A stretch of 64,000 nucleotides of DNA from Planctomycetota bacterium (GCA_020631815.1 JACKGW010000001.1:209683-273682), one strand, 5' to 3'. Shown: positions 24,433-40,090, counted from the stretch's first letter. Notes: generated by a model not told the origin, from the sequence alone. A program made the numbers and translations.

Positions 24433-24526
24433 GTCAGGGCGACGGTAGCGGGCCACCATCGGCGACGACTCGTGGTCTGTTCACTCGAGGAGCCGATGGT
24501 GGCGCGGGACCGAGCATCTGACGGGC
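24433..24526 (+). repeat. Element C (ccaccatcggc...gccgatggtgg hairpin + GGGACCGAGCATCTGRCG tail), copy 1
   Basis: gtcagggcgacggtagcgg-gccaccatcggcgacgactcgtggtctgttcactcgaggagccgatggtggc-gcgggaccgagcatctgacgggc. 11-bp stem, 27-nt loop. Confidence 0.75.
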
Positions 24527-24563
24527 AGTACCTTCCCACGCCAGCAGACGCGCGCACCCAGCG

Positions 24564-25766
24564 CTAGGCCGTGCCGACGACGCCCATGAGGTTACCGACC
24601 TTGGTGAACGCGGCGATGGCGCGGTCCACGTCGGCGGTCTCGTGCGCTGCCGACAGCTGCACGCGGATGCGCGCTTGGCCCTTGGGCACCACGGGGAAGC
24701 TGAAGCCGATCACGTAGACGCCTTCGTCGAGCAGGCGATCCGCCATCTCCATGGCCACGCGGGCGTCGCCCAGCATGATCGGAACGATCGGGTGCACGCC
24801 GCGGCGGATCGAGAAGCCGGCCTTCGCCATGCCTTCGCGGAAGCGCATGGTGTTGGCTTCCAAGCGATCGCGGAGCTCGGTCGTGGACGACAGCAGCTCG
24901 AGCACGGCCAGCGAGGCGGCCACGATGGGCGGCGCCAGCGAGTTGCTGAACAGATACGGGCGGGAGCGTTGACGCAGCAGGTCCACGATCTCCTGCCGCG
25001 CGGCCGTGAAGCCGCCCGACGCACCACCCAGGGCCTTGCCAAGCGTGGACGTGATGATGTCGATGCGGCCCGTGACGCCGCAGTGCTCCGGCGTGCCGCG
25101 GCCCGTCTTGCCGACGAAGCCGGTGGCGTGGCTGTCGTCCACCATCACCATGGCCTCGTGGCGTTCGGCCACGTCGCACAGCCCGGCCAGGTCGGCGATG
25201 TCGCCGTCCATCGAGAACACGCCGTCCGTGGCCACGAGCACGCGGCGGGCACCGTCCTCCCGCGCGCGCGTGAGCTGCGTGTCGAGGTCCTTCAGGTCGT
25301 CGTGGGCGTAGCGATAGCGCTTGGCCTTGCAGAGGCGGATGCCGTCGATGATCGAGGCGTGGTTGAGCGAGGCGGAGACGATTGCATCCTCCGCGTCGAG
25401 GATGGTCTCGAAGAGGCCGCCGTTCGCGTCGAAGCACGACGAGTAGAGGATCGAGTCTTCGAGCCCCACGAACTCGGCCAGCTTCTGCTCGAGGTCGCGG
25501 TGACGGTCCTGGGTGCCGCAGATGAAGCGCACCGACGACATGCCGTAGCCGCGCTCGTCCAGCGAGCGGCGAGCCGCCTCGATGACGCGCGGGTGGCTGC
25601 TGAGGCCGAGGTAGTTGTTGGCGCAGAAGTTGAGCACGTCGGCGCCGCCCTGGACGCGCACGTGGGCGCCTTGGGCCGTGACGAGCAGACGCTCGTGCTT
25701 GGTGAGGCCGGCCTCCTCGATCTCCTCGAGCTGCTTGGCGTAGGACGCGCGCACCGGGTCGAACAT
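24564..25766 (-). CDS. kbl: Glycine C-acetyltransferase (2-amino-3-ketobutyrate CoA ligase, Kbl)
   Basis: 400 aa from ATG 25766 (GGAGGAGG SD). PLP-dependent AOS family. [10 protein letters not shown] (PLP lysine). High similarity along the length to Kbl ([14 protein letters not shown]). Confidence 0.9.
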
Positions 25767-25884
25767 GGGTCCTCCTCCAGGCCGGGCGCGTCTGCCCCCG
25801 ACGAGCGCGCCACGGTACCCGTGGGCCTTCTTCTCGGCCACGCCGGGCTGCCAGGGATGCGTGCACCCCCTCGCGTGCCTGGGT

Positions 25885-25946
25885 GCGGCTCGTCAGATGC
25901 TCGGTCCCGCACCCGCATCCGCTCCTCGAGTGCAGGTGCACCTGCC
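25885..25946 (-). repeat. Element C partial copy (reverse orientation), ending in a perfect 14-bp palindrome gcaggtgcacctgc
   Basis: ggctcgtcagatgctcggtcccgcacccgcatccgctcctcgagtg is about 85% identical to 39793-39845. Palindrome at 25932-25945. Confidence 0.65.
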
Positions 25947-25963
25947 GACTCTTTCCGCGCTCA

Positions 25964-26038
25964 CGCGCGGACTAGGCGCTCGGGCCGTGGCCCTCGCGGC
26001 AGAGGGGCTATTCCGTACCCCCTCTGCACTCCTCACGG
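25964..26038. repeat. Element D copy 1 (75 nt; contains the gcagaggggctattccgtaccccctctgc hairpin)
   Basis: cgcgcggactaggcgctcgggccgtggccctcgcggcagaggggctattccgtaccccctctgcactcctcacgg. Confidence 0.8.
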
Positions 26039-26192
26039 CCCGTGACGACCCGATGCGCGGCGGACGCAAGCCGATCCGAACAGTGTTCGGGCCCAGTTGC
26101 TCGCGCAGCTCCAGCCGCTGGTGAGGGGGTACGGCGCGGGGCCGCCGCACAGCGCCCCGTGTTCCCCAGGCTCCGGGTACCTTCCGCAGGTG

Positions 26193-38336: not shown

Positions 38337-38474
38337 GGGCTGGGTCTCCACGGCCGGCCAGCCGACCCGGGTCGAGAGCCACCGAGGAGACGAGGACGGG
38401 TTCCGCCTGGAGCTCCGGGTCTGTCTGAGAACACGTCCTGCTGCGGCCACCGTGTCTCTCGCTGCGCCCGCCCC

Positions 38475-38590
38475 AACTCGAATCCGGGTCCTTTGGCGGT
38501 CAGGGGACCGCCTCCGGCCCGGCTTCTCGTCGTGCCTGTGGCTCGCTTCGGCCCCGGTGTCCTCGCGACGGAGTGTTCTCAGACGCACCC
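38475..38590. repeat. Element E copy 2, between the divergent desaturase genes
   Basis: About 85-88% identity to copy 1 over ~115 nt. Same orientation. Confidence 0.8.
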
Positions 38591-38748
38591 TAGGCGCGAG
38601 GAGCCCTGATTGTCAGGTCTCTTCCTCCATTTCGGGGATTCCGATGGGGATCGCGCTTCAGCGGATGTGAATCCGGTTCGACCCGGGGTATTGGCGCCCG
38701 CGTTGCGCGTCGTGCGCGTAGCCTCCCCGGACTCCCGGCGGAACCTCC

Positions 38749-39762
38749 ATGCCTCGAACCACATTTTGCGACGCCCCCGCCGCGGCGGCGTCTACATCGC
38801 GAGGCCCCTTCGCCGCGACGCGTCCCTTCACGCGGGGCAGTGCGCGCAAGGAGGCGTGGTTCCTGGTCTCGACGTTCGCCGTGATGGCCGCCTTCGCCAC
38901 GGTGGCCGTGCTGCCTCTCGCGTGGCCTCTGCGCCTCCTCGGGTCTCTGGGGACGGGCCTCACCATGGTGCGGGCGTTCATCCTGTTCCACGACCGCCAT
39001 CACGGGGCCGCGTTCACCGAGTCGCGCATCGCCAAGCTCGTGCTCGACGCGTACGGCCTCCTGCTGCTGACGCCGCCGCGCCTGTGGCGCTACACGCACA
39101 ACTACCATCACGCCCACACGGCGCGGACCGACGGCGACCAGCGCGGAACGTACACCCTGTTCACCACCGAGCAGTGGCGCAACGCGTCCAAGCGAGAGCG
39201 CTTCGCCTACCGCGCGGAGCACCACCCGCTGACCTTGCTGTTCGGCTACGTCACGGTGTTCCTGGGCACCTTCGGCGTCTGGCCCGTGCTGCGCAAGCCC
39301 GCGGCGTCCTGGGACAGCCTGGCCTCGCTCGTCGTGCACGCCGGCGTCGGCACCCTCGCCTGGGTACTCGGCGGACCCGCGGTCTTCGTCTTCGCCTTCC
39401 TCATCCCGTTCTTCCTGGCGGGTGCGATCGGCGCGTTCCTCTTCTACGTGCAGCACTACTTCGAGGAGTGCTCCGTGCCCGACGAGGCGACGTGGACGCA
39501 CGCGGGCGCCGCACTGGGCGCATCCAGCCACGTGGCCTTCGGCCCGGTGGGTAGCTGGTTCACGGGCAACATCGGCCTGCACCACATCCACCACCTCAAC
39601 CCGAAGATCCCCTTCTATCGCCTGCCCGAAGCGCTCGCCGCCGTGCCGGCGCTCCAGACCTCCAAGCCCATCGTCCTGAGCCCGCGCGCCATCGCTCGCT
39701 GCCTCCGCCTCAAGCTCTGGGATGCCGACTCCGGTCGCCTCGTCGCCTACGCCGACGCGTAG
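38749..39762 (+). CDS. Membrane-bound fatty-acid desaturase (three His-box type)
   Basis: His boxes HDRHH, HNYHHAH, HHIHH with correct spacing. About four TM helices. 337 aa from the annotated ATG; an internal start is possible. Confidence 0.85.
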   Translation: MPRTTFCDAPAAAASTSRGPFAATRPFTRGSARKEAWFLVSTFAVMAAFATVAVLPLAWPLRLLGSLGTGLTMVRAFILFHDRHHGAAFTESRIAKLVLDAYGLLLLTPPRLWRYTHNYHHAHTARTDGDQRGTYTLFTTEQWRNASKRERFAYRAEHHPLTLLFGYVTVFLGTFGVWPVLRKPAASWDSLASLVVHAGVGTLAWVLGGPAVFVFAFLIPFFLAGAIGAFLFYVQHYFEECSVPDEATWTHAGAALGASSHVAFGPVGSWFTGNIGLHHIHHLNPKIPFYRLPEALAAVPALQTSKPIVLSPRAIARCLRLKLWDADSGRLVAYADA

Positions 39763-39792
39763 GTAGGGCCGCGAGCCTGGGTGCGGTGGGGC

Positions 39793-39879
39793 GGCTCGCC
39801 AGATGCTCGGTCCCGCACCAGCATCGGCTCCTCGAGTGAACAGACCACGAGTCGTCGCCGATGCTGGCGCGCTACCTTC
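39793..39879 (-). repeat. Element C, copy 3 (reverse orientation; stem variant ccagcatcggc/gccgatgctgg)
   Basis: ggctcgccagatgctcggtcccgcacc-agcatcggctcctcgagtgaacagaccacgagtcgtcgccgatgctgg. Compensatory change within the stem (atggt→atgct on both arms) preserves pairing. Confidence 0.75.
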
Positions 39880-40090
39880 GCCCTGACGACCCGATGCGTA
39901 GCGGGTGGCATTCGAAGCCAAGATGCGGGCGTGATGTGCTGAGGCGGCTCCGGGGGAGCCCGGGCGGACGCGCGTTTCCGGTCCGCTGCAATCGGTCACC
40001 GCGCGGCGCTCGAGCCGGGCGCGCGGCTCGGGACCGAGCATCTGGCGGGCCGTACCTGGGCACGGTGGGGCCTCAGCGCATACTCACTCC

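Follow-up and report, generated by a model that had tools for sequence, protein, structure and literature searches.

The DNA considered here is a window of 64,000 nucleotides (64 kb) from a Planctomycetota bacterium (GCA_020631815.1, JACKGW010000001.1:209683-273682), and the subject is a repeat that recurs between its genes, element C. The original prediction, made from the sequence alone, described this element as a hairpin on an 11-bp stem followed by a conserved 3' tail. Its coordinates hold for all three full copies, for the partial copy and for both tails: c1 at 24433-24526 (+), c2 at 29119-29217 (+), c3 at 39793-39879 (-), the partial copy p4 at 25885-25946 (-), and the tails t5 near 40031 and t6 near 6636. 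The genes next to the copies are unrelated to each other and of housekeeping type; they encode an aminotransferase, HEAT and VWA proteins, ferredoxin, a carbamoyltransferase, a ThiS-like protein and two fatty-acid desaturases. Hence element C is a dispersed intergenic repeat and not a duplicated gene cassette.

The 18-nt tail GGGACCGAGCATCTGRCG has six sites with three or fewer mismatches in the window (6640, 24506, 25891 on the minus strand, 29194, 39797 on the minus strand, and 40030) against 0.52 expected, and none of 100 shuffles reaches six. A loop block of 36 nt is the same in c1, c2 and c3 without any difference, where 0 would be expected by chance. Counted on alignment A2, the cores of c1 and c2 differ at 9 of 94 positions, in agreement with the identity of about 90% given earlier.

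RNA folding shows a long imperfect hairpin of about 38 bp that covers the whole unit of about 100 nt, with the 11-12-bp stem as its centre. The stem and the conserved tail both exist, but they are parts of this one hairpin and not separate features: the tail comprises the basal helix's 3' strand together with the right subterminal region, and it pairs with the 5' segment GTCGYCAGGGCG. Similarly, the tgacgacccgatgcg block, which had been taken for a separate neighbouring module, is the reverse complement of the element's own 5' end, CGCATCGGGTCGTCA. Folds of the unit range from -65 to -74 kcal/mol with z about -5 to -6. The core of c1, that is its long hairpin, occupies 24424..24532 (+; nhmmer match 6.8e-31) and folds as RNA at -64.8 kcal/mol (z = -5.6); its inner stem arms lie at 24452-24463 and 24492-24503 and its tail at 24506-24523. 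The inner stem is GCCAGCATCGGC / GCCGATGCTGG in c3 and GCCACCATCGGC / GCCGATGGTGG in c1 and c2, one C-G to G-C swap made on both arms, so the compensatory change reported for c3 is as described. A nearly invariant GTAG stands at the 5' foot of the inner stem (GGTAGCGCGCC…). GTAG is also found at the element termini; the hairpin is about 100 nt long, and the terminal 25 nt form no stem resembling that of a repetitive extragenic palindrome (REP). Pairing of the 3' stem arm with the tail (GATGCT/AGCATC) would give an alternative hairpin, but no stem variant other than AGC/GCT forms it perfectly; it is hence unconserved and was discarded.

Copies are not confined to the window. A window protein maps exactly to two NCBI metagenome-assembled genomes (MAGs) and to several activated-sludge metagenome contigs; the window is 99.6% identical to GCA_020638895.1, and GCA_041398635.1 served as the sister strain for comparison. 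A scan with a 21-nt tail, over one genome per species, gave 30 loci, 25 of them in the single MAG JBFWRP01 ('Planctomycetota bacterium CA_2019_TPBF_209'; loci L007-L035 are among the MAG loci). The other five are single matches in unrelated sequence contexts and look like chance. JBFWRP01 shares synteny with parts of the window, where the nucleotide identity is 78-88%, and is therefore a related species. Scanning metagenomes with the tail added about 20 further copies from activated sludge and digester. The copy number is thus at least 25 tails in one MAG and six in the 64-kb window. The original prediction would have sought relatives among the Myxococcota; the NCBI label is Planctomycetes/Planctomycetota. 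A BLAST search of plasmids with a canonical copy gave no match, and the exact loop sequence is absent from viral contigs. Rfam gave no match at the gathering threshold in the window and none at E<=1 in two canonical loci; a permissive Rfam search of 24300-26150 returned only spurious matches far below threshold. No description of the family was found in the literature searched.

Preservation of the base pairs was examined on alignment A3. It brings together 32 distinct copies, taken from metagenomes and from two genomes, and pairs were counted on the predicted structure. Standard pairs make up 97.5% of the 1216 pair cells. Both sides have changed at 10 of the 38 pairs (40 cells), and none of 500 shuffles reaches any of the observed measures; if the 3' partner is shifted by 1-3 columns, pairing falls to 31-46%. 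Stem positions do not vary independently, and the base-pairing signal in element C is real. The variation is uneven. Two adjacent pairs, 34-114 (AU 21, CG 5, GC 5) and 35-113 (GC 18, CG 12), hold most of it and together take at least five distinct compensated states (AG, AC, CG, GC, CC), while the rest of the stem is nearly invariant; these pairs, hypervariable yet compensated in every case (A3 columns 34-35 / 113-114), correspond to 24455-24456 / 24499-24500 in c1. Further compensated states occur at 10-139, 13-136, 25-124 and 40-108, and copy L031 has three compensated changes in a single stem. There are two exceptions: L042, whose arms belong to two subfamilies, contains mismatches, and in L060 the 3' arm has decayed.

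Pairs other than Watson-Crick are distributed very unequally: G·U fills 110 cells and A·C only 5, the G·U being on the C strand. Most copies have inherited three G·U positions. At about ten other pairs, Watson-Crick by consensus, sporadic single changes have given G·U, from both C→T and A→G. The A·C cells are confined to four copies (L007b, L055b, L060 and L011) that are degenerate or have an alignment indel or a rebuilt loop. The C strand also folds better than its complement in all 32 copies as RNA (mean -69 versus -56 kcal/mol) and in 31 of 32 with DNA parameters. The asymmetry and the stability of the C strand together point to a constraint that would act on the single-stranded form of one strand, RNA or single-stranded DNA. 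The original prediction had proposed selection on secondary structure as RNA or as a cruciform; the pairing stands, but the one-strand G·U bias argues against a duplex cruciform, and likewise against the idea that one arm is simply a copy of its partner.

What kind of repeat carries such a hairpin is clearest in the related MAG. The canonical element there is 212 bp long, or 278 bp with a second repeat (element D, below) nested in it, and has no coding capacity; the copies in the window measure 176-321 bp. Its inverted termini are GTAAGCGTTCA…TGAACGCTTAC, perfect in L035, and the variants GTACCCGTTCA, GTAGGCGTTCA and GTATCCGTTCA are found among L007, L014, L015, L021, L026 and L054, with starts such as GTACCCG, GTAGGCG and GTATCCG. 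Canonical copies are flanked by direct repeats of 8 bp, which match at eight of eight positions in L035 (GCGCAGCG), L021 (CTCGACTG) and L011 (CACCCCTT), at seven in L015, L026 and L014, and at six in L007, L008 and L024 (the seven- and six-position matches were read by eye, except those of L026 and L007). A match of at least 6/8 at a fixed position has a probability of about 0.01 per copy by chance, assuming a match probability of 0.3 per base, and therefore the repeats are a genuine target-site duplication. Insertion sequences of the IS66 family are known by inverted repeats starting with GTAAGCG and by 8-bp direct repeats (PMC11946415, citing TnCentral), an example of such an inverted repeat being GTAAGCGTCCGG… (PMC12888890), and element C has both. 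[quoted passage not shown] Judged by its GTAAGCG termini, its 8-bp duplication and its lack of coding capacity, element C can be identified as the core of a non-coding MITE with IS66-type ends. Its mobiliser, acting in trans, is most likely an IS66-family transposase.

The insertion polymorphism is seen at c2. The sister strain GCA_041398635.1 is without window 28988-29248, which holds this copy, and has 22 bp instead, with flanks that are 96% identical. Conversely, the window sites syntenic with the MAG copies L015 and L018 are empty or occupied by another repeat.

With boundaries inferred from the canonical copies, the whole of c1 extends over 24382..24557 (+) and has a short left arm. Its left end is GTAGCGAG…GTTCAGCCCC and its right end …GACGCGCGCAC; its flanks, CAGCGCAT and CAGCGCTA, agree at 6/8, and the copy is situated downstream of the stop codon (24564) of the aminotransferase gene. 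The segment with c2 is 28988..29245 (+), the core being 29113-29220. The two tails had been described as isolated fragments. Their sequences are there, near 40031 and 6636, but neither is isolated. t5 (tail 40026-40056, +) is joined to c3 (core 39789-39897, -) in a 321-bp composite at 39763..40083 (-) with two right-end-type termini in inverted arrangement; the inverted ends are about 53 nt long, GTAGGGCCGCGAGCC… and …CCTCAGCGCATAC, and the tails are their inner part. t6 is a complete 214-bp MITE of a related subfamily (6480..6693, +), which shares the right end and the tail and has a different inner hairpin.

The partial copy p4 is composite too, at 25855..26075 (-), with an architecture that is also found in MAG loci L007, L008 and L026. 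It retains the 5' end of C (26043-26057, the block mentioned above), the 3' half with the tail (25883-25934), and the right terminus GGGGGTGCACGCATCC, which ends at 25855, 13 nt upstream of an aminotransferase GTG at 25841. In place of the 5' stem arm and half of the loop there is element D (25950..26038, +), a repeat in its own right, about 90 nt long and containing two hairpins, assigned to family D7; its second copy, at 32965-33053, is 91% identical. Thus p4 is a copy of C with D nested inside. D is found inside C in both orientations, replacing the 3' arm in L014 and L034 and the 5' arm in L007, L008, L026 and p4. D is also linked to loci L016 and L030.

In the original prediction the missing arm of p4 had been replaced by a perfect 14-bp palindrome, possibly a restriction or regulator-binding site. 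The palindrome GCAGGTGCACCTGC does exist at 25932..25945, but it is D that has replaced the arm, and the palindrome marks the junction between D and C. It is found at the p4 locus only, besides contigs of the same species, and we rejected it as a recurrent site in favour of a one-off junction. Other copies show further rearrangement, with an extra small hairpin in the loop of L041, L045 and L055 and different left modules joined to the same right end in L019, L025, L029 and L032. The joined modules had suggested mosaics like those called bacterial interspersed mosaic elements (BIMEs). The modules are real; they are not REP arrays but nested insertions or replacements by D, and composites with two right ends. 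MITEs inserted into one another, nested or clustered, are known (PMC10969869). As a separate matter, in the metagenome contigs L005 (5654-6457) and L006 (6074-6290) the c3 locus contributes its left half and the p4 locus its right half, the two being joined at the 58-nt repeat that they share; this may be either an assembly chimera or a real recombinant, and the repeats are an assembly hazard either way.

The copies of element C are placed unevenly with respect to genes. By open reading frame (ORF) calls based on G+C content at third codon positions (GC3), the gene beyond the tail end is convergent in 34 cases and co-directional in 12, while at the other end there is no bias (21 versus 19). 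In 22 cases the stop codon of a convergent gene is no more than 40 nt away from where the nhmmer match ends, usually in the terminal CTAC or TTAC (GTAG or GTAA on the gene's strand). The terminal CTAC of c2 gives the carbamoyltransferase gene its TAG stop (29242-29244), and comparison with the empty allele puts the CTA of the element exactly in place of the native CTA. c3 is likewise adjacent to a stop, the composite of c3 and t5 spanning the entire gap from the fatty-acid desaturase stop (39760-39762) to the ThiS-like ATG (40091). There is a simple explanation: only the right terminus bears a stop (GTAA/GTAG), the usual left end being GTAC, and insertions into the last codons would be tolerated in that one orientation only. 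A target preference may be an alternative source of the adjacency. Palindromic repeats ending in GTAG and giving TAG stops have been described already (PMC3733652). TAG accounts for 15 of the 22 stops adjacent to the element, and the enrichment is weak because TAG already makes up 49% of stops in these loci generally. Among 130 GC3-supported ORFs of the window and MAG loci L007-L035, we counted 64 TAG, 63 TGA and 3 TAA stops; this share of TAG is high for a 71% GC genome, and stops donated by repeats may partly inflate it.

The tail was also considered as a promoter of ECF (extracytoplasmic function) or sigma-54 type and set aside, since in most copies it faces the 3' end of a convergent gene. 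Around c1, p4 and c2 a scan for sigma-70 promoters showed no promoter-like site, and a scan for intrinsic terminators showed only chance-level sites, none of them inside the elements.

One copy appears to have been put to use. t6 fills the whole gap between the genes for an M16 peptidase and a GDPD protein. Its left terminal GTAG holds the TAG stop (6481-6483) of the peptidase gene, and at its right end AGGAGG (6678-6683) lies 12 nt before the GDPD GTG at 6696, the GDPD Pfam domain beginning at residue 6; this AGGAGG is likely the ribosome-binding site of the GDPD gene. Its ortholog in the MAG, at locus L028, has 95.8% identity to t6, against 80-85% for the flanking coding DNA, a comparison that indicates purifying selection on the resident copy.

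The explanation that we find probable as a whole is that element C belongs to a MITE family with IS66-type ends, mobilised in trans, whose hairpin is kept as a single-stranded form and some of whose copies have been co-opted. An IS66-family DDE transposase would move the family; we infer such an enzyme because IS66 has two published hallmarks, GTAAGCG termini and a duplication of 8 bp. Copies would persist mainly where they are harmless, between genes and above all with the right end against the stop of a convergent gene, where the terminal GTAA or GTAG on the gene's strand would end the reading frame at once. The hairpin would be retained because the single-stranded form of one strand matters, most likely as a transcript acting as a stable stem-loop in the manner of other bacterial MITEs. 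Compensatory changes are reported to maintain RNA structure in bcr1 (PMC3184786), and stable stem-loop transcripts of MITEs have been described (PMC10969869). Gene conversion between copies might help by carrying both arms together, and some copies, such as t6 with its stop codon and likely ribosome-binding site under purifying selection, would have acquired a role for their neighbours.

Several observations weigh against this explanation or parts of it. Unpaired columns of the core are as conserved as paired ones (mean heterozygosity 0.076 versus 0.074); therefore structural selection alone is insufficient to explain the conservation, which is that of the whole core and not purely of helices. 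Conservation is much stronger in the core than at the termini, the opposite of what is expected of a simple MITE. Orthologous loci carry different core subfamilies with many linked differences (L010/L049, L013/L044), which suggests gene conversion or re-insertion moving both arms together. These three observations lower our confidence that every compensated pair was selected at its resident locus, and they give rise to the reading of the core as a module, taken up below. Most of the stop-adjacent copies would put the weaker-folding strand, not the C strand, into the transcript of the neighbour. As regards transposition, the termini of c1-c3 are degenerate (so are others in the window; examples are GTAGGGCC at c3 and GTAGGCGCTCGG at t6), and there is no convincing target duplication in the window copies save the 6/8 candidate at c1. 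An automated search for duplications at stop-adjacent copies returned only the canonical L026 and L035, and none for stop-adjacent or window copies. The clean evidence on termini and duplications is that of a relative, which in its syntenic regions has 78-88% identity to the window, and the perfect terminal repeat has only 11-12 nt compared to the 20-30 bp typical of IS66. In the fetched DNA, about 0.56 Mb, neither the left-end model nor a TnpB query revealed a transposase or an autonomous element of IS66 type. The tblastn search of all fetched DNA with an IS66 TnpB sequence is a weak negative; the left-end profile search for an orphan insertion-sequence end beside a transposase found only the left ends of MITE copies.

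Other readings can be ranked behind the MITE explanation. The core of about 110 nt might be the selected unit itself and more than the passive cargo of an IS66-type MITE, a strand-specific single-stranded hairpin module (RNA, or DNA read by an HUH enzyme) that is copied between transposon shells and preferentially becomes fixed at stop codons, the element giving the stop and in some cases the ribosome-binding site of the following gene. Such a module would account for a core better conserved than its termini, for G·U on one strand, for the hypervariable compensated pairs and for the 96% conservation of the resident copy, and we regard it as unlikely, though the least unlikely of these alternatives. 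Markedly less probable is that the core is a GTAG-tagged palindrome of the REP/REPIN type, copied as single-stranded DNA by a tyrosine transposase (RAYT/TIRYT, HUH) with the IS66-like shell as incidental or as captor. G·U on one strand suits an enzyme that acts on a single DNA strand, the GTAG at the foot of the inner stem is nearly invariant, and the core sits in several shells that are less conserved than itself; besides, GTAG repeats giving TAG stops and many tyrosine transposases are reported from the planctomycete Rhodopirellula baltica (PMC3733652). Against it, the hairpin has about 100 nt and REPs have 20-40 nt, and a tblastn search of the sampled loci showed no RAYT-like ORF, a weak negative. 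Moreover, the canonical copies have 8-bp target duplications and inverted termini, and HUH transposition (IS200/IS605, RAYT) is not known to yield either.

A little less credible again are two explanations of the hairpin that need no such enzyme. The copies could be primarily structured RNAs with a function for the host (a 3'-end stabiliser, a terminator or a small RNA from the C strand), spread by duplication or gene conversion. Covariation, the one-strand G·U bias and the placement hard against stop codons would suit this, as would an orthologous t6 that is more conserved than the adjoining coding sequence, and MITE-derived small RNAs and terminator-like MITEs are known (PMC10969869). Yet there is no Rfam family match, and neither a U-tract nor a promoter-like site is present; strains can do without particular copies, the best-folding strand is antisense to the stop-abutting gene in 34 of 46 cases, loops are conserved equally with stems, and the target duplications demonstrate real transposition. 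To the second, which we hold equally improbable, the compensated stems owe nothing to structural selection and are signatures of subfamily founders, spread by conversion tracts longer than the roughly 70 nt between the arms. The linked subfamily differences between orthologous loci (L010 vs L049, L013 vs L044), the mismatched arms of L042 and the concentration of variation at two adjacent pairs speak for it. Every founder variant would still have needed both changes, however, and there are at least five compensated states at 34-114/35-113, with more at 10-139, 13-136, 25-124 and 40-108. In addition, the ten or so sporadic single changes give G·U, with A·C only in four anomalous copies, which points to selection on pairing.

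If the MITE explanation is correct, the family is new while its kind is well known. Element C resembles the IS66 family in its GTAAGCG termini and 8-bp target duplication (PMC11946415, PMC12888890), and differs in being 212 bp long, in lacking tnpA/B/C genes, in a perfect repeat of 11-12 nt and in a palindromic interior more conserved than the ends. Like REP, REPIN and BIME sequences, it consists of GC-rich hairpins downstream of genes, often between convergent genes, with a GTAG foot, inverted doublets forming a large stem-loop, TAG-donating termini and mosaic clusters (PMC3733652, PMC3184786). REPs are units of 20-40 nt with no target duplication, whereas element C has 212 bp, inverted termini and 8-bp duplications, so that it falls outside a definition of REPs by the absence of duplicated targets; also, REP arrays are ordered and the mosaics of C are nested insertions. 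The bcr1 repeat of the Bacillus cereus group, a transcribed MITE-like element of about 155 bp, is similarly dispersed between genes, has short flanking direct repeats and a strain-variable distribution, and shows compensatory changes that keep a double-stranded RNA structure (PMC3184786). Its direct repeats are of 5 bp, its sequence and host are other, and its transcription is documented, in contrast to C, known here from sequence. Correia elements of Neisseria have a TA duplication, and their terminal repeats, of 26 bp, contain promoter and IHF sites. With these and with the ERIC/IRU repeats of enterobacteria element C has no sequence relationship, and it differs from them in its 8-bp duplication and IS66-type ends. 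Like it, Correia and ERIC/IRU elements are imperfect intergenic palindromes, theirs being of 100-150 bp, and their transcribed copies form hairpins and can alter the expression of neighbouring genes (general background and PMC10969869). By analogy, element C may work much as bcr1, Correia and ERIC do, as a transposon-derived palindrome that folds when transcribed.

Our current understanding of bacterial repeats is not overturned by such a family, which accounts for a large share of the odd repeat-rich intergenic DNA of this lineage. In annotation, its copies are to be masked or labelled as mobile DNA and not as regulatory RNAs or promoters. The repeats can cause chimeric joins in metagenome assemblies, and the presence or absence of copies could mark strains in activated-sludge populations. 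For MITE biology, element C offers a clean GC-rich case of a hairpin kept by compensated changes and of a transposon end giving stops and a ribosome-binding site.

Element C is not the only repeat of the region. At least three further dispersed repeat families occur in the window, the intergenic DNA of which is largely built of such elements: D2, of about 100 nt (12477-12576, 16618-16717 and 38498-38597); D8, of 80 nt with GGGATCAGACCCCG motifs (20045-20124 and 22844-22923); and an inverted-repeat family with GGGTCTGA (3316-3342 and 49027-49159). A second repeat polymorphism between strains is found in the intergenic segment 32819-33042, in place of which the sister strain (L002, 4119-4318) has another repeat, one with 85% identity to window 3287-3484. 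A long hairpin repeat, GTACGGAGGCGGGGATTTCTTCCGCAGCTTGCCG … CGGCAAGCTGCGGAAGAATTCCCCGCC, stands directly upstream of the C copies in L010, L013, L016 and L049, loci of the relative and of metagenome contigs. Finally, window 21543-21779 contains AAGAAGGCC repeats with a period of 12-18 nt; they encode a segment rich in Ala, Lys and Pro (AKKA type), which is probably the tail of a histone-H1-like or other basic protein.

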